A DNA stretch of 50,709 bases from Escherichia phage vojen. The notes under the pieces are model-generated. The model was given only the letters and a program-made list of their open reading frames with translations, had not been told where the DNA came from and searched no databases. Each line of letters begins with the position of its first letter. The stretch's first letter is position 1. Shown here piece by piece: positions 1,072-50,709 of the stretch. The stretch lies in sequence record NC_049824.1, one strand, 5' to 3'. The translations under genes were made by a program, and so were the position numbers.

Positions 1072-1134
1072 CTTACCGTCTCCTGATTGGTGTCTCGTTT
1101 CGATGCGTGTAATGTACCCGATCAGGCTGATTCA

Positions 1135-1154
1135 GTTTTAACAAAAAGTGCTAT
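1135..1154 (-). promoter_or_regulatory. Conserved 20-bp element (minus-strand reading ATAGCACTTTTTGTTAAAAC)
   Basis: Exact match to the dispersed motif; lies upstream of minus-strand gene 799..1071; TACATT -10-like hexamer about 18 bp further on. Confidence 0.55.
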
Positions 1155-1440
1155 TTATCAACTGGCGATTATTCCATCTATTCCATTAATCAGGAATAAC
1201 AGGAATAACTCATTCGAGATCACATGGATTGTGAGATCTTGAGTTTGATCAATTTTAATCAGGTGATTAACTTTTTGTGTGGAGGGGATAGAGAAACTCG
1301 GTCCTCTTGCATCCTTTCCGGCAATCCTGGAGGGCGCAACTGTTGTCTTCTGTTATCGCTGTTATGCGTGTTATTCCGGCGTGGAATCGCATAACAAAAA
1401 ATAACAAGAAAAATCCATATAACATACTAAAAAATAAGGA

Positions 1441-1580
1441 TTATTTATTTATATGTATCTATAAATTATTATCTGTTATGTGTGTTATGTGGTTATATTG
1501 ATACCTGGTGTGTTTTTGGTGGTTGTGTGTGGTTGTGTATTGGTTGGTGTGTATATATGTGGGCGGGGGCGTATCCGCGC
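1441..1580. repeat. GT-rich low-complexity element, copy A
   Basis: AT-rich tract followed by (TG)n-like runs (ggttgtgtgtggttgtgt...) and a GC clamp; similar in order and sequence to 30921-31045. Confidence 0.5.
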
Positions 1581-1690
1581 ATTTTTAGATAACACGCAAA
1601 AACAACATTGATTTATAAGAAAAAAAACGAGAATCTTGTTATTTTCTGAAAAGATAACATCGGAAAACCGCCAGTAACAATAAAAAACAG

Positions 1691-1720
1691 TTGACACACC
1701 AGGTGACGGTAAATGATAAT
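1691..1720 (+). promoter_or_regulatory. Sigma70-like promoter for the plus-strand early block
   Basis: TTGACA (1691-1696), 18-bp spacer, GATAAT (1715-1720), about 30 bp upstream of the first early gene. Confidence 0.55.
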
Positions 1721-2477: not shown

Positions 2478-2497
2478 ATAGCACTTTTTGTTAAAAC
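2478..2497 (+). promoter_or_regulatory. Conserved 20-bp element ATAGCACTTTTTGTTAAAAC
   Basis: Exact motif; followed by inverted repeat CCAGG...CCTGG and CATAAT at an 18-bp gap. Confidence 0.55.
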
Positions 2498-2940: not shown

Positions 2941-2960
2941 ATAGCACTTTTTGTTAAAAC
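2941..2960 (+). promoter_or_regulatory. Conserved 20-bp element ATAGCACTTTTTGTTAAAAC
   Basis: Exact motif directly after the stop codon; AATAAT at an 18-bp gap. Confidence 0.55.
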
Positions 2961-30771: not shown

Positions 30772-30791
30772 CGTTTAGCAAAAAGTGCTAT
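30772..30791 (-). promoter_or_regulatory. Conserved element, variant (minus-strand reading ATAGCACTTTTTGCTAAACG)
   Basis: Variant motif upstream of the lipoprotein gene with TATAGT at a ~17-bp gap. Confidence 0.5.
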
Positions 30792-30920
30792 TCTTGTTCT
30801 TTTGTTATTCGGTGTTCTTAAATCTGCGGAGGCTTAAATTTAGCTCAAAATGTGAGCAACAATAGAGCGCTATACATACAGATAAATATATATACATACA
30901 TACAAATCAATAAGTTAGTA

Positions 30921-31045
30921 GTATATATATTTATATTTGTTCTTTATTGTTATCTATGTTTTGTGTGATTTTGTGTGTCTGGTGTTTTTTATGTGATTAT
31001 GTATGTGTCAGTGGTTGTGTGTGTCTATATATCTATATCCGGCGC
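30921..31045. repeat. GT-rich low-complexity element, copy B
   Basis: AT-rich tract, then ttgtgtgattttgtgtgtctggtgtttttt...gtggttgtgtgtgtc, then CCGGCGC clamp; parallels 1441-1580. Confidence 0.5.
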
Positions 31046-31161
31046 AAATGTAGGAACAAGAGAACAAAAAGACAACGCGGATATTTATCAATAACTTACA
31101 TGTAAGTTTTGTTATCTAGGTTGGTGAGAACGTTGTTAGAACAGAAAAAACAAAATAACTA

Positions 31162-31189
31162 TTGACTAAACGCATCAAATAGCTACAAT
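31162..31189 (+). promoter_or_regulatory. Sigma70-like promoter for the recombination operon
   Basis: TTGACT (31162-31167), 16-bp spacer, TACAAT (31184-31189), ~30 bp upstream of the exonuclease gene. Confidence 0.5.
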
Positions 31190-31218
31190 GCAGACATACC
31201 AACCAATGAGGGCAAATC

Positions 31219-32280
31219 ATGAATAAGTTTATGGCGTACACCAGCGAAGAAATGAGCAATGAGCTTTATCACGATCCAGAAGCGTGGACGGCTGATTATG
31301 TTAGCGGCTCAAGCCTGGCAGAGATTTACAGCACATGCCCGGCAGCGTGGAAGTTCAAGCCGCGTGACGATAAGAGCAAGGCGCTAGTTTTCGGTACGCA
31401 GTCGCATACCAACTTTGAAAGCAAGGAGCTTTTCGAAAAAACATATCGCCGTGCGCCATCGCCAGAAGACTTTAAGGATCTGATAACTAGTCAAACTGCG
31501 CTTGCCGCAAAACTGAAATCATTTGGCCTGAAAGGTACAACCGGAAAGACTTATCCAGACCTTATCAAAATGTTGGTTGACTGCGGAGAAGACCTTAACG
31601 TCATGTGGTTAATCGACATGATCGCAGAAAGTCAGGCCAGGGCAGATGGGGTTCAGTTAATCGAAGCTAAAGATTACGATGCGTGCGTGGCAATGCGCCA
31701 GGTTCTGGAATCAATACCGGAACATAACGCATGTATGAATAGCAAGACGGCACAACGTGAATTATCGTTGTTCGGTGAAATTAACGGCGTAAAAGTCAAA
31801 GTGCGATGCGATCACGTTGACGTAACAAAGAACGTCACCGCAACGCTGATTGATGGTTACGATGAAAAAGGTCAGCCGATTTGCCGCGATATTATTTATC
31901 CAGAGGCCATTGTGATCACAGACTACAAAACTACAATGAGCGCGAATCCGGCTGAGTTTATGCGCCTGGCTTACAATCACGGCTATTATTTGAAAATGGC
32001 GTTGCAATGTGATTTATTCAGAAAAGCGTATCCAGAAGAAAAGCGACCTATAGTTGTGCGACTGTTAGCGCAAGAGAAGAAAGAGCCTTATTTGCCGTTG
32101 GCTTTCCGCATGAATAGCGAGCAATTGAAGATCGGGCGCATTCAGTACATGAGCGTAATTAACCAGTTTGCCATGTGCCAGCAACATGACGTTTGGCCTT
32201 CGTATTCAAACGGCGAGCCGGAGGTTTGCCTTGATACTCCTGATTGGGTGCGACGCCAGTTTAAGCAATATCTTATTTAA
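31219..32280 (+). CDS. putative recombination exonuclease (PD-(D/E)xK family)
   Basis: Candidate catalytic segments CDHVD and ITDYKT; directly upstream of Erf and SSB. Confidence 0.55.
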   Translation: MNKFMAYTSEEMSNELYHDPEAWTADYVSGSSLAEIYSTCPAAWKFKPRDDKSKALVFGTQSHTNFESKELFEKTYRRAPSPEDFKDLITSQTALAAKLKSFGLKGTTGKTYPDLIKMLVDCGEDLNVMWLIDMIAESQARADGVQLIEAKDYDACVAMRQVLESIPEHNACMNSKTAQRELSLFGEINGVKVKVRCDHVDVTKNVTATLIDGYDEKGQPICRDIIYPEAIVITDYKTTMSANPAEFMRLAYNHGYYLKMALQCDLFRKAYPEEKRPIVVRLLAQEKKEPYLPLAFRMNSEQLKIGRIQYMSVINQFAMCQQHDVWPSYSNGEPEVCLDTPDWVRRQFKQYLI

Positions 32281-32361
32281 ACAGCACAAATAGCTAAACA
32301 AATGAAAAATGCGGTGTTATAATTCACCGCATAAGTTAACAACAAGAGTAAGGAAATAAAC

Positions 32362-32640
32362 ATGGAAAACAAACAAGTGTCAGAGGTAGTAGTTCATATT
32401 AATAATTTTGCAACTGGCATGGCTATGTTGCTTCGTGACTTTGTTGCGCCGCTTGATCCAACAGCAGGCGCAGAAGAAATGGAGTACATCAGAAAAGTAA
32501 TTGATGCAGTCGATAACGTCGTGCTCATTGCAACAATGAGAGAAGAAAACGAGGAAGCAATTAAGGCGGTAAAAGAAAGTTCTGATCGCATGATGGAAAA
32601 TCTGATTAAATTACACACCAAAGAAGAAACAAAACATTAA
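32362..32640 (+). CDS. hypothetical protein (92 aa)
   Basis: ORF with AAGGAAA RBS between exonuclease and Erf genes. Confidence 0.5.
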   Translation: MENKQVSEVVVHINNFATGMAMLLRDFVAPLDPTAGAEEMEYIRKVIDAVDNVVLIATMREENEEAIKAVKESSDRMMENLIKLHTKEETKH

Positions 32641-32685
32641 CAGCAATAAGGCGGCGAAAGCCGCCATTAATTACGGGAATTAATC

Positions 32686-33342
32686 ATGAAACTATCAGAG
32701 CAATTCGACAAGGTTTTACCAGCACTGCACAAGGCGCGCAGTTTGTTTGTAAAGGTTAAGAAGGATAAACAAAATACACACTTAAAAAACCGTTACGCTA
32801 CACTTGATTCCGTTCTTGATGCAATCACTCCAGCATTGAATGATAACGAGCTAATGTTGATGCAGGATATGATTGAAAGCGAGCAACCCAACCGCATCAA
32901 AGTTGAAACAACAGTTCTGCATGTTTCCGGTCAGTGGGTGAAATTCTATGCTGAATTACCAATAGTTAAAAACGATCCTCAAGGTGTAGGATCTGCATTT
33001 ACATACGCGCGTCGTTATGCAGCCGCCGCAGCATTTGGCTTAAGCCAGGCAGACGATGACGCACAGATTGCCGTTAAATCTGCAAACGACTGGAAGCGTG
33101 ACATTGAGAAATGCGAAAGCGTAAACGAATTGCAAGAAGTGCTTAAATCAGCATGGAAGGCAAGCGATCCGGCAAGCAAGCAGGTAATTAAAGAGCATTA
33201 CGAGAAGCGCAAGGCAGAGCTTGAGATCGGCAAAGCACGAGGATTTAATCCAGCGCAACCAAAGCAAAATCTTGCATCGCCAGAAGTTGACACAAAAAAC
33301 GACGAGCAAGTAAAATCGCAAAGTATCACTGATTTTGAATGA
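32686..33342 (+). CDS. erf: Erf-family single-strand annealing protein
   Basis: N-terminal [18 protein letters not shown] and central [23 protein letters not shown] match the Erf family signature as recalled for P22 Erf. Confidence 0.7.
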
Positions 33343-33385
33343 TTGACAGGGGCGATTGCGCCCCTTTTTTACAGGAGAATAAAAC

Positions 33386-33838
33386 ATGCATATTATTACT
33401 GGTGAGATCCGAAAAGAGCCGCGAGTAAAGCAAATGCCTAACGGCAGCACACTTTATGTGGTTGAACTTTCAGAGCGATACAAAGATAAAGATGGAAACT
33501 GGCAATATACAAACTACAGTTTCTTTTTTAATGCTAAAACAGAAGGTCTTAAGGGTTGGTATGATGAGGCGTTCCAGGTTGGCAAGGTTATTTCTGTATC
33601 TTGCGACACGCTGCGCATTGAAACGCGTGAATATAACGGAAAGATGTATTCAAGTTTAATGCCAGGAGGATTTGCAAATCTTATCTTCAGTCAGCGCGGG
33701 GAAAGCCAGCAACAATATCAGCAGCGAACGCAAGGAGGATGGGGCCAACCACAACAACAGAATCAACCGCAACAACAGCAACAGCCAAGACAAAGCAATC
33801 AACCTCCTATGGACTTTGACGACGACATTCCTTTCTGA
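33386..33838 (+). CDS. ssb: single-stranded DNA-binding protein
   Basis: Gln/Pro-rich linker and acidic C-terminal tail DFDDDIPF typical of SSB. Confidence 0.8.
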   Translation: MHIITGEIRKEPRVKQMPNGSTLYVVELSERYKDKDGNWQYTNYSFFFNAKTEGLKGWYDEAFQVGKVISVSCDTLRIETREYNGKMYSSLMPGGFANLIFSQRGESQQQYQQRTQGGWGQPQQQNQPQQQQQPRQSNQPPMDFDDDIPF

Positions 33839-37968: not shown

Positions 37969-38901
37969 TTAGAGAAGTGATTCAGGCTTGTAAACCTTCC
38001 TCTCTATCCCTTGCCTGTAATTATCATGAATCGGCATCATAATTTCAAGTCCTCTTTCCTCAGCAGCAATGATCGCGTCACGGTCTGTACTCTTACAGAC
38101 AACTCGCATTCTTCTGTTGCCTTTATACCTGTAAGCTACAATCTCAATGTTAGTTGCATCAAAGCAGGCCCAAACCTCTTGACCAGTTGCAAGGTGAATA
38201 TGTTGCGCATCAATCCAGTCAACGCAAAGATAGATCGTCTTATCTGTGCTTCCTGTTCTCACAATCGACCCGCGCGTGTAGTCCTTTGCGAGAAAAGACT
38301 TATTACCTTCTTCATCAATGAAAAGCACATTGCACATTTCATCATCAATTTCATCTGAATGTACCAGGTAACATGGGAGCGCGTGAATGTATCGACCATC
38401 TTTAACGCCGCATTCATAATAACCATCTTCAGGCGGATATATCCCTTCATATGTACTTAACGGGGTGCGATCAAATTTTAGTGTTTTCGACATAACTCGC
38501 TCGCAGCATTCATGGCTTGCCTGCTTCCCAAACGAATAACCAGAATCACGAGATACTCGCTTATTTGCCTTGATCCTATAGTCCTGCGGAACTTTTCCAA
38601 GAAAGCGGCCCAAAATATTGATCACTTCGCTGTAAGGTTCTCCGGTTAGCTTCATGATCCAACCAATTCCAGTATCGTTGCCGCACACGTTGCAGATAGC
38701 GCCGCCATCGCCTTTTTTATCGCCAAGTTTATCCGTCCATCTGAAGCGATCCTTTCCGCCGCAGTGGGGGCAAGATTGATGCTTGCCGTTAAAAACTTCA
38801 TTTGGAAGACCGCAAATACTTTGTAGCGCCTCACGCCACAATCCTTGCATATATGGGAGAACATCTTCTTTTTGATAAACCATAAAGTTTTCGTTATTCA
38901 T
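37969..38901 (-). CDS. DNA primase (zinc-binding domain type)
   Basis: [12 protein letters not shown]...CNVCG zinc-finger arrangement; start moved to ATG with GAGGTG RBS. Confidence 0.55.
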
Positions 38902-38956
38902 ATACACCTCAAACAAAAAAGCCTGACAGATGATAACATCATGCCAGGCATTGTTT

Positions 38957-39430
38957 TTAGCAATTAGTGCTTTCAGGTTTATACAGGAATCCGCCAGGTT
39001 CATAATCTGACATTCTTACCACTCGCAACATTTCACGCTTATCACATCTCTTTGTGAGCGGTTTTCCATTGGAATCAAATCGCAGATCTGGACGGCAGAA
39101 TGAAGCGCGATAGCCTTGACAGCCATACTTTTTGTAATCGTTATGCACCTTTTGAGCGCCAGCGGCTGAAATCATACCGCGAACGCGCCACTGATTTACA
39201 GTTTGCTGGCTAACGTTAAGACGCTTTGCCATTGCTGACACGCTGCCGTAATACTCAATAAGAATGTCAAGCCGTGCTTTTAGTCCGGCGCGCACTTCAT
39301 CTTTTAAAACATAGTATCCTGTAGGGCGCTTGCGCTTTTTCTTATCTTTACCCCGTCGAGTTCCGTTATTGCCATTGATTGTGCGTTTGTCAATCTTACC
39401 AGTTGATACTGCGATTCGCTGTTCTTTCAT
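38957..39430 (-). CDS. putative DNA-binding regulator (basic N-terminus, HTH-like segment)
   Basis: KDKKKRKRP basic stretch; LNVSQQTVNQWR HTH-like segment; GGAGA RBS; start abuts a conserved element in the divergent region. Confidence 0.5.
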   Translation of the reverse strand: MKEQRIAVSTGKIDKRTINGNNGTRRGKDKKKRKRPTGYYVLKDEVRAGLKARLDILIEYYGSVSAMAKRLNVSQQTVNQWRVRGMISAAGAQKVHNDYKKYGCQGYRASFCRPDLRFDSNGKPLTKRCDKREMLRVVRMSDYEPGGFLYKPESTNC

Positions 39431-39464: not shown

Positions 39465-39519
39465 TGATTTAATGATTGTGTATTATACACGCCAAATGGC
39501 ATTACTCAAAGGTTTTAGA

Positions 39520-41565: not shown

Positions 41566-41983
41566 TAAAGGCGATTATCTGGAGTTTTACGAAAGAGATC
41601 CGACGGATACGCTAAAAGAGGAATCTCACCAGATCGGGGCGTTTCAATGGTTAACTTATGCTCATCCTGAATTTCTTGCCTGGCATACTAAAAATGAGGG
41701 CGACAAGGGGATCGCCACCGCAATGATGGATCAGCAAGCAGGACTCGTTAAGGGCGTAAGTGATTTTATCATCCTGATTGGATTGAAAGGCCGCTACCCT
41801 TTCGCGGCTATTGAGATGAAACGCGTCAATAAGTCTGGCAAGGGTAAGTCTTCACCAGTCAGCAAGGATCAAAAAGCCTTCTTGCGTCGTGTGCGTGAGC
41901 TTGGCGGATTCGCTGCCGTAACATACGGATATAAGCAATTCATGATCGCGGTAGAATACATGATAAATAGCACTTTTTGTTAA
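41552..41983 (+). CDS. VRR-NUC-like nuclease
   Basis: C-terminal segment with SDFIIL...AIEMKR consistent with a PD-(D/E)xK/VRR-NUC core; last five codons encoded by the next motif copy. Confidence 0.5.
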   Translation: MAMTDKGDYLEFYERDPTDTLKEESHQIGAFQWLTYAHPEFLAWHTKNEGDKGIATAMMDQQAGLVKGVSDFIILIGLKGRYPFAAIEMKRVNKSGKGKSSPVSKDQKAFLRRVRELGGFAAVTYGYKQFMIAVEYMINSTFC

Positions 41984-41986
41984 AAC
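41967..41986 (+). promoter_or_regulatory. Conserved 20-bp element ATAGCACTTTTTGTTAAAAC
   Basis: Exact motif followed by GGCGC...GCGCC dyad and CATAAT at an 18-bp gap. Confidence 0.55.
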
Positions 41987-46466: not shown

Positions 46467-48050
46467 TTACCCCAGCAATGTTGGATTTACGAAAACAACG
46501 CCATTAATCACACAAATATAATTTCTTTCCTCAAGCATCGGAAGCAGTTGCGTTTCCATGCGCTTCATTACGCCAGCCTGACCAACAAAAGGCTTAACTT
46601 TTCGTGCAGCCTCATATATGGCGCGCACATTCAAGATCCCCTTGTTAGCCTTACCGTGTCGAGTGATAATCTCGATTAGTTTGCCCATTTCAGCATCATC
46701 ACCAGCATAGCCAGAAGCGTTGGCGGCGCTAATGTATGTTTTGCTCAACTCGCTAAACATCAGCAGTGCTTCTTGAACGGTTTCAACTTCAATCTCTTTC
46801 GACTTCTGAGGGTATCCACCAGGATTAAACCAGTTGCGGATAGTGTGCAAAACCGAAGCAATCCTGATCACCTGCTTATCCATTTTGCCAAGAGCACCGC
46901 GCAGCATTGTATGCGAATACTTTCCGCCATCAGCAAGGTGCGGCTCCATCTCCTGACGAGCCATGTTAAGAACTCGCATTGCTGATTTGCTGATCTTAAG
47001 CTGGATGTTTGATTCACTCATGATGTTATGGATCAGCTTAAAATATTGACTTTTCAGTTCTCCATCAACAGGCTCATAAGTAGAATCACCGTTATCATCA
47101 ACAAACTTTCGACGACCTAAAAATGATTCCTCACGCACAAGCAAATAACGCTCACTCACACCGATACCGCGCGATCCTGCATCCATGATGGCATTGATTG
47201 TTTCATCCTGGGCAATCACCGCCATACAGCCAAGAGCTTTAAAACTCATATTGTTGTCAGCGTTTGCACGAGCTATAGAAACATGACCATGATCCCATGC
47301 TTTCAGCACAAGTTCGCTGTTGGTTTTACGTTCGCCATTAGCATATGTCAGACCTAAAAGGCTGTTAATACTCGTTGCCTCGTCTGAAATCACAGCAAAG
47401 TTACCCTGGCGATTGTTGATTCTTGCAAGTCCTTCCGGCGTGGTGTCGGACACAGGGAAAACAATGTCACACATCTTTTCCAGTTTTTCTTCCAGATCTT
47501 CTTTCTCTTGGTATAGCGATTCCATATCAGCACCAGATCGCTCGCTCTTCATCTCTTTTGCAAGACCTGCCAACTTTGCCTGAATCTTTTTCCGCTCCTT
47601 CTTTCGCTGATCATTAATTCTTTCCACTTCAGCAACCATAGGAGCAAGAGCCAGGCTGTTAACGGCAGATTTACCAGTTGAAGGAGGCTGGCTTGTGACA
47701 ACATAAAGAGCGGTTGGCTGATCCGTTCCGTGATACTCAACCGTGAATCGTCCAAGCATTGCAGCAGACACACAGCCGATAAAATGCATATATGCCGATG
47801 ATTCAGGGAATTGAACAGATCGAGCAATGTTGCGCGCCAACTTGCCAACAACATCAACATCATTGCCAAGAGAAATTACAGGGTAGCGATCGTTTCCGTT
47901 ATTAACATCATTAACCTCACCCCAAAAGCTGGACGATTGACGGTATCCGTTAGCCTGAATGGACACGCGCACCGGAGACAATCCTTGTGCATCAGCTAAT
48001 TCGATAATTTGTTTTGGTGTTAGTTTATTGGTTTCAAACGAAAAATTCAT
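46467..48050 (-). CDS. P-loop ATPase, putative replicative helicase / primase-associated ATPase
   Basis: Walker A QPPSTGKSA; start moved to ATG with AAGGAG RBS. Confidence 0.45.
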   Translation of the reverse strand: MNFSFETNKLTPKQIIELADAQGLSPVRVSIQANGYRQSSSFWGEVNDVNNGNDRYPVISLGNDVDVVGKLARNIARSVQFPESSAYMHFIGCVSAAMLGRFTVEYHGTDQPTALYVVTSQPPSTGKSAVNSLALAPMVAEVERINDQRKKERKKIQAKLAGLAKEMKSERSGADMESLYQEKEDLEEKLEKMCDIVFPVSDTTPEGLARINNRQGNFAVISDEATSINSLLGLTYANGERKTNSELVLKAWDHGHVSIARANADNNMSFKALGCMAVIAQDETINAIMDAGSRGIGVSERYLLVREESFLGRRKFVDDNGDSTYEPVDGELKSQYFKLIHNIMSESNIQLKISKSAMRVLNMARQEMEPHLADGGKYSHTMLRGALGKMDKQVIRIASVLHTIRNWFNPGGYPQKSKEIEVETVQEALLMFSELSKTYISAANASGYAGDDAEMGKLIEIITRHGKANKGILNVRAIYEAARKVKPFVGQAGVMKRMETQLLPMLEERNYICVINGVVFVNPTLLG

Positions 48051-48101
48051 TGATGATAACTCCTTTTTGATGCGGCAATAATACCGCACCAATGCTACCC
48101 G

Positions 48102-48121
48102 CATTTAACAAAAAATGCTAT
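48102..48121 (-). promoter_or_regulatory. Conserved element, variant (minus-strand reading ATAGCATTTTTTGTTAAATG)
   Basis: Variant motif followed by TGCGG...CCGCA dyad around TATTAT at an 18-bp gap; overlaps the TAG stop of gene 48118..48339. Confidence 0.5.
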
Positions 48122-48339: not shown

Positions 48340-48722
48340 TTATACATGGCCTCAAACAAATGACAGCCACCAGCGGAAAACCCTACTTCTTCGCGGTATA
48401 GCGTCCAGCGATCGCCAGCTTCATCAAACACATAACCAGCAACATCGCCAAGAGCGCGGCCTTGCTCAATCTGGTAGCGCTTTCCTTCTTTGAAATGCTT
48501 TTTGCAAGGGATCTTGTGATCTACAAAGGTGCATTTAATTGTTTTTGTCTTGATATGACGATAGTCAGACTCAACCGCGTTTTGCCACTTGCTACCCTTT
48601 GTAATGCTCTTTACCTGGAATTGTTCCAACTCGATCACATCATCGCTACCAGCAATTTTTTCGTATACGGTTTTATAGCGCCCGTTCATCAAAACGTTGG
48701 TTTTATTGCAGATAACTTTCAT
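48336..48722 (-). CDS. hypothetical protein (128 aa)
   Basis: ORF with GGAGA RBS downstream of a complete motif/dyad/CATAAT module. Confidence 0.55.
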   Translation of the reverse strand: MKVICNKTNVLMNGRYKTVYEKIAGSDDVIELEQFQVKSITKGSKWQNAVESDYRHIKTKTIKCTFVDHKIPCKKHFKEGKRYQIEQGRALGDVAGYVFDEAGDRWTLYREEVGFSAGGCHLFEAMYK

Positions 48723-48777: not shown

Positions 48778-48797
48778 CTTTTAACAAAAAGTGCTAT
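48778..48797 (-). promoter_or_regulatory. Conserved 20-bp element (minus-strand reading ATAGCACTTTTTGTTAAAAG)
   Basis: Exact motif followed by GCCAGG...CCTGGC dyad and CATAAT at an 18-bp gap, then RBS and ATG of 48336..48722. Confidence 0.55.
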
Positions 48798-49498
48798 TTT
48801 GCGTTAGCTTCAAAGACTGCGCGGGCAAAACCGCGCGGGGTGAGGGAGCGGATCATCTTTGTGCGAGATGATTTTCCGCCAGTTTTGGCCCAACCAGGAT
48901 TATCCTTCTCAGTTGGTAATATCATGTTTTTAGGTGGAACGATAAATCCGTTACCAGTCCAAAGGCATGTTTTCTTAAAGTACCGATCCCGCGCAGGAAT
49001 AATATCAGGGAAGTCGGGATGTTTATCATCTTCCGGTAAATATCCGGCGTAATCGCACGGATGGAACGTGTAATCAGGCTTACGCCATAACGTTGACAGC
49101 TTGCCTACAGGATTCTCTATCATGTAAGGAACACCGAAATAATCAGCGATATGCGCGGCTATTTTGCAAGTGTCGGCGGCCTCATTTTGGAAGTTAGGAT
49201 TTTCCATGCGCTTTTTAGCCCAATGGCGAGATCCGCTGTTTGCTAATTGTGTGCAAGGTGGGAAGGCCATAATGAAATCAGGCTTACCCCAATTTTCAAG
49301 TTTTGCGGTATATTTGAATAGATCATCAATCCACACATTAACGTAAAAAATATTATCATGGATTATGCGCACTGAGTGGTAATCTCCGTGATCAGCATCA
49401 TCGTAATTAAAGCAAATGCATTTATATCCATCATCAGCCCAATCTTTAACAGCCTTACCAGATCCATCAAACAAAGAGAAAATTAAACCTTTATACAT
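48794..49498 (-). CDS. DNA cytosine-C5 methyltransferase-like protein
   Basis: Motif I-like LFDGSGKA, PC-containing motif IV-like FPPCTQ, ENV-like MIENPVG; 234 aa is short for this family. Confidence 0.5.
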   Translation of the reverse strand: MYKGLIFSLFDGSGKAVKDWADDGYKCICFNYDDADHGDYHSVRIIHDNIFYVNVWIDDLFKYTAKLENWGKPDFIMAFPPCTQLANSGSRHWAKKRMENPNFQNEAADTCKIAAHIADYFGVPYMIENPVGKLSTLWRKPDYTFHPCDYAGYLPEDDKHPDFPDIIPARDRYFKKTCLWTGNGFIVPPKNMILPTEKDNPGWAKTGGKSSRTKMIRSLTPRGFARAVFEANAK

Positions 49499-50690: not shown

Positions 50691-50709
50691 GTTTTAACAA
50701 AAAGTGCTA
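50691..50709 (-). promoter_or_regulatory. Conserved element, truncated at window end
   Basis: Plus strand reads GTTTTAACAAAAAGTGCTA, preceded by GATGCGC...GCGCATC dyad enclosing an ATAAT-like hexamer. Confidence 0.5.

Follow-up and report, generated by a model that had tools for sequence, protein, structure and literature searches.

A duplicated non-coding module of the T1-like Escherichia phage vojen, a tentative replication-origin candidate joined to early promoters

The origins of lambda, of SaPI and of P4 consist of iterons plus an unwinding element, and the binder is encoded by the phage or island; in SaPI the iterons lie on both sides of an A+T-rich stretch. Two related copies within one genome occur in SPP1 (oriL and oriR) and in P4 (ori and crr). 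The T7 primary origin contains promoters, an A+T-rich stretch and primase sites, and oriF and oriG of T4 combine a promoter with an unwinding element. For the T1-like phages, two papers report that no origin was found (PMC11447400, PMC7718038). Here, we analyzed Escherichia phage vojen (NC_049824.1). The window, meaning the whole stretch of 50,709 nucleotides, is a complete T1-like genome (Hanrivervirus, Tempevirinae, Drexlerviridae). Our subject is the interval 1358-1690, which is copy A of a two-copy conserved non-coding module; copy B lies at about 30795-31190. We tentatively read this module as an element of the replication-origin type coupled to an early promoter, in which an unwinding core is flanked by binding words between divergent promoters. 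From the sequence, we give this reading a probability of roughly 45%. No description of the module was found in the literature searched, and no origin or miscellaneous feature stands at its positions among the database matches listed.

The module was compared with these systems part by part. As in lambda, SaPI and P4 ori, there is an A+T core of minimal stability with short lineage-specific words on both sides, the phage has its own primase and helicase genes, and DnaA boxes are absent. Unlike in those origins, the words have just 5-6 nt, the module lies neither in nor beside an initiator gene, the initiator would have to be chosen from candidates, and a strand-biased T+G tract of 90 nt is added in the Tempevirinae. 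The SPP1 and P4 pairs are matched by two related copies with the same words, about 29.5 kb apart. Unlike in these pairs, each copy is tied to an early promoter, and any firing or cooperation of the copies would be hypothetical. The T7 and T4 origins are resembled in the close linkage of promoters to an A+T-rich unwinding stretch, in the T7-type primase (PF08273) and in three GTGTC words within the tract of copy B. In contrast to T7 and T4, the core lies upstream and not downstream of the sigma-70 promoter, so that the rightward transcript cannot prime there, and the tract of copy A contains neither GTGTC nor related T7-type primase template words. All of these likenesses are anatomical, and membership in one of the groups is not claimed.

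Anatomy of copy A and its counterpart copy B

Copy A is located in a divergent intergenic region of 680 bp (1072-1751), which is flanked on the left by the minus-strand gene 799-1071 and on the right by the plus-strand gene 1752-2222. A preliminary description had listed a gap of about this size with a second copy elsewhere, and within it a nested dyad, an A+T-rich stretch, a TG tract closed by a GC clamp, GATAACA-type words and a strong promoter. All of these features are present where they had been placed, and above chance. The dyad is formed by GTTATGCG (1361-1368), ATTCC (1373-1377), GGAAT (1383-1387) and CGCATAAC (1388-1395). Folded as single-stranded DNA, 1345-1410 reaches -13.7 kcal/mol (z = -5.1), a value matched by none of 200 shuffles. 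Three tandem (C)TGTTAT words with a period of 9 bp (1351, 1360 and 1369, within 1349-1395) overlap the dyad (1361-1395) and occur only in the closest Hanriverviruses. The left flank (1377-1424, plus strand) begins with a unit of CGGCGT, 8 nt and ATAACA; ATAACA words stand at 1391, 1401 and 1419, together with A-runs. The A+T core follows at 1406-1470 (86% A+T) and includes the 34-nt segment AAAAATAAGGATTATTTATTTATATGTATCTATA. Next comes the T+G tract (1471-1560, plus strand; T 51%, G 33%, A 12%, C 3%). TGTTAT (1474 and 1483) and GGTTAT (1491) stand at its start, and GTGTGTATATATGTG closes it. TATATAT is followed by the GC clamp GGGCGGGGGCGTATCCGCGC (1561-1580) with its CCGCGC, after which 8 nt and ATAACA follow on the plus strand, up to 1594. 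A unit of CGGCGT or CCGCGC, 8 nt and ATAACA is therefore found at 1377 and at 1575, 198 bp apart and in the same orientation, and brackets core and tract. The GATAACA-type word AGATAACA occurs at 1587-1594 and at 1652-1659.

To the right of the clamp lies an A-rich arm (1581-1690, plus strand, 49% A) with ATAACA at 1589 and 1654, TGTTAT at 1637 and a conserved AACATTGATTTATAAG at 1602-1617. Its A/T tracts, at 1620, 1642, 1664 and 1682, are spaced by about 21 bp, and the arm ends in the UP-element-like AAAAAACAG (1682-1690). The predicted early sigma-70 promoter TTGACA-N18-GATAAT directly follows (1691-1720, plus strand) and agrees with the consensus at 11 of 12 positions; TTGAC and ATAATGC are invariant in nine relatives. 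The gap and its flanks are 89-94% identical to those of the Escherichia and Shigella phages egaa, damhaus, EC147 and pSf-1 (Hanrivervirus). Warwickvirus (JK16, atuna) retains the layout of copy A at an identity of about 70%; the conserved blocks there are GATAACAAAAAATAACAA of the left flank, the 34-nt core segment, GATAACA, AACATTGATTTATAAG and the promoter. Despite the low overall identity, the 34-nt segment is identical in both JK16 and atuna. A search for more copy A loci by way of the DUF7174 protein yielded only three close relatives. An 11-nt perfect inverted repeat (1503-1513 and 1694-1704) is not kept in egaa and was taken as chance.

Copy B was identified by alignment: 1407-1558 aligns to 30880-31030 with 69% identity over 157 columns (E = 4e-9). 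The parts follow each other in the same order in both copies, namely words, A+T core, T+G tract, TATATAT with the GC clamp, A-rich arm and sigma-70 promoter. The left flank of copy B (30777-30870) consists of a minus-strand copy of a 21-nt repeat (30777-30793), TTTTGTTATTCGGTGTTC words and CTGCGGAGGCTTAAAT; the words of this copy are of the TGTT/AACA kind. The A+T core spans 30873-30945. On the plus strand, 30946-31045 holds the T+G tract (to 31038; 85% T+G in 30947-31026), TATATAT and the clamp CCGGCGC. The A-rich arm (31046-31189, plus strand) carries GGAACA and GAACA words and TTTTGTTATC, and the plus-strand promoter TTGACT-N16-TACAAT (31162-31189) lies ahead of the exonuclease VIII-Erf-SSB operon. 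Perfect IHF consensus sites (WATCAANNNNTTR) occur seven times in the genome. Two of them are in copy B, one in the core (30905-30917) and one in the arm (31086-31098), and both are partly conserved in relatives. None was found in copy A, and IHF is thus not a shared feature of the module. In a Keio screen with the T1-like phage LL5, non-essential DNA-binding host factors were not required (PMC7229145).

Matches to copy B, with identities of 68-96%, occur in 195 phage records. When 15 non-redundant copy B sequences were aligned, footprint-like invariant blocks emerged: TTTTGTT (twice), GAACA, GGCG(C/T)AAAT, the A-run by the -35 element and the promoter. Within this alignment CGGCG(C/T)A(A/T)AT is invariant and is the counterpart of the GC clamp. 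Copies A and B of the same genome are 69% identical over 157 nt in vojen, 75% over 91 nt in T1, 68% over 123 nt in TLS and 83% over 123 nt in Rtp (E = 5e-34). Comparison of copies A across subfamilies gave weaker matches than these, with vojen and T1 aligning over 42 nt only. The sequences suggest that A and B evolve together within each genome (concerted evolution). In phage G29-2 (locus L007, 1-520), the A slot carries an allele like vojen copy B, which suggests exchange or conversion between the copies.

Duplex stability, repeated words and the T+G tract

The cores stand out in duplex stability. In vojen, 30876-30935 in the core of copy B is the least stable 60-bp window of the genome and 1418-1477 in the core of copy A is the second (z = 4.9, compared with about 3.3 for the third). 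In vojen, T1, TLS and Rtp alike, a set that covers three subfamilies, the cores of A and B have the lowest stability of all windows of both 60 and 100 bp, with z of about 5 against about 3 for the next. In 43 of 44 relatives from IMG/VR, the beginning of the stability minimum is 319-373 bp ahead of the exonuclease VIII start codon, the exception being locus L056.

Short words are clustered around the cores. In 1150-1700, TGTTAT/ATAACA was counted 12 times, compared with a genome-wide rate of 0.59 per 500 bp. Copies A and B together contain 14, where 1.55 +/- 1.2 are expected, and none of 1000 dinucleotide-preserving shuffles of the same segments reached 14. Other words are enriched in other phages when compared with local dinucleotide shuffles: GTTAC in T1 (8 vs 1.6), GTTC in TLS (16 vs 4.6) and GTTAC in Rtp (7 vs 1.6). 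Over both modules, observed and expected numbers are 17 and 2.3 for GTTAT in vojen, 8 and 1.8 for GTTAC in T1 and 7 and 1.5 for GTTAC in Rtp; in TLS the enriched words are GTTCA, GTTCC and GTTCT. These words were chosen after inspection, which overstates the significance, but the effect is still large. Since the word varies by lineage even though all four phages infect E. coli, a phage-encoded binder seems likelier than a host one. A phage protein would then bind the words, and candidates are the early Cro-like helix-turn-helix (HTH) protein (38957-39430) and the DUF3987 helicase.

The tract is an outlier in strand composition. Among all 80-nt windows of the genome (mean T+G 0.50, sd 0.07), 1473-1552 has the highest T+G content (87.5%), copy B is second (85%) and the third reaches 74%. 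In vojen, T1 and TLS, the module regions have the lowest plus-strand C content of the genome. The tract itself is confined to the Tempevirinae, where the T+G fraction is 0.75-0.875 in copy A and mostly 0.78-0.86 in copy B (0.71-0.74 in five closer loci, L019, L021 and L024-L026). T1-like loci reach 0.64-0.73 only, and Rtp has no tract. In the relatives, the composition is kept and the sequence is not. The tract had been described as alternating and as a possible unusual DNA structure. Its richness in T and G stands, whereas the alternation is loose: the longest strict purine/pyrimidine run in copy A has 15 nt (1547-1561, GTGTGTATATATGTG) and is half TA, and that of copy B has 19 nt (ATATATATACATACATACA). 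Z-DNA formation needs long uninterrupted purine/pyrimidine alternation, tens of bp for TG/CA. The runs are too short for this, and what is conserved is the composition and not an alternating repeat.

The primers built by T7 primase contain A and C only, and its templates are words such as 5'-GTGTC-3'. The primase of vojen is of the T7 zinc-ribbon type, and a T+G strand would suit such an enzyme. By analogy, this strand might be a template for A/C-only primers, which stays speculation given that GTGTC is lacking in copy A. Absence of the tract from T1 and Rtp means that it cannot be essential to a family-wide function. A more elaborate scheme would have two paralogous Drexlerviridae origins kept alike, one by the packaging site and one before the recombination operon, to which the Tempevirinae added the 90-nt tract as a primase start pad or another strand-specific loading signal. 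We regard this scheme as improbable.

Weighing the origin against other readings

The preliminary description had named the region as a natural candidate for an origin. This is still the reading with the best support, and it is drawn from anatomy and comparative data. Typical traits of an iteron-type origin are present in vojen, T1, TLS and Rtp: an A+T-rich unwinding element of low helical stability, and short repeats flanking it (TGTTAT/ATAACA or the equivalents in the other three). Both vojen copies are situated between a leftward promoter of the 21-nt-repeat type (1154->1111 for copy A, 30793 for copy B) and a consensus sigma-70 promoter. The phage also encodes a replication and recombination set of T7/P4-type primase, DUF3987 helicase, SF2 helicase, exonuclease VIII, Erf and SSB. 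A DnaA-dependent oriC-type origin was rejected, because there is no box cluster and neither of the only two DnaA boxes (TTWTNCACA) in the genome lies in A or B. The nearly pure A+T core is where the genome unwinds most easily. In the proposed mechanism, divergent early transcription would add negative supercoiling and thereby aid melting of the core; the twin-domain model is the established basis for supercoiling by divergent transcription. A helicase would then be loaded, and the T7-type primase would start synthesis.

Several points weigh against an origin. The call comes from anatomy and sequence comparison, the words have only 5-6 nt and were picked post hoc, and the protein that would read them is represented by candidates. 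Changes in the word are not mirrored in the recognition helix of the Cro-like protein: T1 (SNQTVQG) and Rtp (TPQAVEE) differ in the helix and both have GTTAC. Pairing of helix and word over 39 contigs gave a noisy picture, with phylogeny as a confounder. Conservation of the DUF3987 helicase is uniform, and it has no variable DNA-binding end. The T+G tract is absent from T1 and Rtp, and a phage with its own recombination system might not need a fixed origin. Furthermore, both copies lie upstream of a sigma-70-like early promoter in all four genomes, and A+T-rich DNA with phased A-tracts is common upstream of strong promoters.

The main rival explanation is transcriptional control only. The A-rich arm would be an UP element with bent DNA that strengthens the early promoter, the words would be operators, core and tract would be a spacer or insulator, and a phage regulator such as the Cro-like HTH protein would switch both the early and the facing leftward promoters. 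A whole-genome scan with a cut-off of 10 of 12 positions detected only three intergenic consensus sigma-70 promoters, at copy A, at copy B and at 39509 on the minus strand. The same three positions were recovered in T1 and TLS, where the copy A promoter is below the cut-off, and the TLS paper also counts three such promoters (PMC11447400). The two copies are thus directly upstream of two of the three promoters, and the third lies before the HTH-primase operon, from which a Cro-type regulator is made. Words are found near the promoters, AAAAAACAG adjoins the -35 element, the A/T tracts have their spacing of about 21 bp and copy B has its IHF sites. However, the third early promoter lacks the module, which is therefore not a general requirement of early promoters. 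Core and promoter are as close as about 60 bp in Rtp copy B and as far apart as about 250 bp elsewhere, a variation that a promoter-proximal element would not tolerate. Transcriptional control would also leave unexplained the extreme stability minimum at the core in four genomes and the 34 nt inside the core that are identical between genera. We therefore rate it as rather unlikely, below the origin-type reading.

Other explanations address single parts of the interval. That the T+G tract is a structural or recombination element of its own (Z-DNA, a weak G-quadruplex or a GT-rich strand for annealing proteins) would fit its extreme composition in both copies, its position where divergent transcription would raise negative supercoiling, and the location of copy B directly upstream of the exonuclease VIII, Erf and SSB genes. 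The alternating run of at most 15 nt in copy A, the lack of G3 runs within the tract and its absence from T1 and Rtp make this highly improbable. Neither copy contains Chi or a one-mismatch Chi, and a Chi-like RecBCD signal was rejected as well. Open frames with hydrophobic segments and basic tails cross the tract (for example 1480-1611 and, in copy B, 30946-31105), and a weak hairpin is followed by a T-run at 1563-1588, so that a small RNA or a small hydrophobic peptide was considered. These frames shift among relatives of 93-95% identity and have no Shine-Dalgarno sequence, no promoter was found upstream, and a scan of the whole window with Rfam 15 at the gathering score gave 0 matches. As an intrinsic terminator, 1563-1588 was rejected: the stem has only 5 bp (1563-1578), and the hairpin has no counterpart in copy B or in other genera. 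A small RNA or peptide from this region is scarcely credible. It is also quite improbable that 1358-1690 is part of the pac site recognized by the small terminase. Ends of T1, TLS, SU57 and MSK all fall into the equivalent intergenic gap, and PMC8421802 cites an earlier paper that links ATATA repeats in T1 to a pac context. Against this, the distance from the mapped ends to the core is 110-215 bp, which places them to its left and outside of 1358-1690. Core, tract and words, which would be single-copy as a pac recognition sequence, recur at copy B without a mapped end, and the core alone would thus not be a packaging signal. Moreover, many Hanriverviruses are 82-95% identical over 1080-1365, and their homology ends at about 1365. 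This mosaic breakpoint indicates that the left element is exchanged independently of the module.

The packaging site, the gene context and the 21-nt repeat

The suggestion that the region serves packaging is supported for the gap as a whole and not for 1358-1690. In T1, where the record opens with the annotated 2,800-bp terminal repeat, position 1 falls into the equivalent gap; the minus-arm gene is 162 nt away, and the core follows 213 nt to the right. For TLS, whose record begins with the restriction-mapped pac site (PMC11447400), these two distances are 195 and 215 nt. The SU57 authors set the start of their record according to PhageTerm ends (PMC7718038), and this start corresponds to about position 108 of Rtp; the PhageTerm end of MSK (36,862; PMC8421802) corresponds to about position 91. 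With the Rtp core at 220-279, these two ends are about 110-130 nt left of the core. Transferred to vojen, the four ends predict a first packaging cut (pac end) on the plus strand at about 1200-1310. Directly left of the module, 1167-1310 is probably a separate packaging site, as judged from the sequence. It includes a cluster of inverted and direct TTATTCC / GGAATAA(C) repeats (1167-1209), which is conserved in T1 (TTATTCCATCAATACTGGAATATCTGGAATAA), is aligned to the T1 junction and is a candidate for the part recognized by the terminase. Three GATC sites within 33 bp (1218-1250) form the tightest GATC triple of the genome. The P1 pac site consists of clustered Dam GATC hexamers plus IHF. Similar to P1, two to three GATC sites lie about 20 nt left of the record start in T1 and TLS, and vojen encodes a Dam methylase; this likeness concerns 1167-1310 and not the module. 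Unlike in P1, only one site of the cluster is left in pSf-1, E6, JK16 and atuna, and a role of methylation would be hypothetical.

The gene order of vojen is that of T1. The first 14 nt of the window are identical to the last 14 (1-14 = 50696-50709, AACAAAAAGTGCTA), with the cut falling within a 21-nt repeat, and this implies a closed circular assembly with a 14-nt overlap and a true length of about 50,695 bp. The minus-strand arm, including the DUF3987 helicase (46467-48104), runs from 46072 across the junction to 1071. The plus-strand early arm (1752 to about 30460) begins with a DUF7174 gene (1752-2222; phrog_4841, no assigned function) and other small genes and continues with terminase, head and tail genes. 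A minus-strand gene for a Cor-like lipoprotein, named Cor by synteny with T1, lies after about 30460 and left of copy B, and the exonuclease VIII, Erf and SSB genes lie right of copy B (31219-33838). The Cro-like HTH gene (38957-39430) is directly upstream of the primase gene (37969-39003), and the two genes stand at the end of a minus-strand block. The HTH open reading frame as called overlaps the primase gene start by 47 nt in vojen; in T1, TLS and Rtp the order is the same, the basic N-terminus GNNGTRRGKDKK is conserved and the genes are 58-76 nt apart. The SF2 helicase, Dam methylase and lysis genes are on the plus strand. A single perfect Chi was found (48367-48374, minus strand). One-mismatch Chi-like octamers (GCTGGTGG) number 46 in the whole genome, with 25.5 +/- 5 expected; they are mostly oriented with the surrounding genes, and the excess may be an effect of the G-rich coding strand. 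About 20 records labelled 'Campylobacter phage' (MG0656xx, UNVERIFIED) are Hanrivervirus genomes that are near-identical to coliphages, and the host given for them seems to result from contamination or mislabelling.

The 21-nt repeat is described in the TLS paper, which lists its function as an open question (PMC11447400). In vojen the family has 15 sites, for example 1135-1154 (-), 2478-2497 (+), 2941-2960 (+), 30777-30793 (-), 41967-41986 (+) and 48783-48799 (-). Twelve of these copies consist of ATAGCACTTTTTGTTAAAAC, a spacer of 18-19 nt and a -10-like hexamer (CATAAT, TATAAT, TATAGT, TATTAT or TACATT). No -35 element was found with those copies, and the repeat is always oriented along the genes. 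The copy facing leftward from copy A (1111-1154, minus strand) is such a promoter-like unit, with the 20-nt ATAGCACTTTTTGTTAAAAC (1154->1135), 18 nt and the -10-like TACATT (1116->1111). At copy B, the minus-strand repeat 30777-30793 is promoter-like and may drive the Cor-like lipoprotein gene. By its sequence, the 21-nt repeat behaves like an activator-type promoter. The 20-mer matches the consensus of the E. coli MarA/SoxS/Rob marbox, AYnGCACnnWnnRYYAAAYn, in 13 of the 14 specified positions, and the spacing is class-II-like. In the Keio screen with LL5, rob was not required (PMC7229145). As a candidate for the activator, the phage Cro-like protein would do just as well.

T1 belongs to the classical T phages, and contamination of laboratories and fermentations by T1-like phages is common. 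No coding sequence is annotated within the equivalent gap in the relatives egaa and damhaus. Some records place small hypothetical proteins inside it (pSf-1, locus L003, 1700-1825; ESh4), and these look like over-calls, as the frames are not conserved among close relatives. The module is a landmark throughout the family, and current annotation either shows nothing there or places spurious small open reading frames in it. Whatever its function, it marks two of the three early promoters. In summary, there are now two defined and conserved origin candidates of 300-400 bp with specific cores and words, set apart from the neighbouring packaging site, and the question of the missing T1-like origin becomes directly testable.

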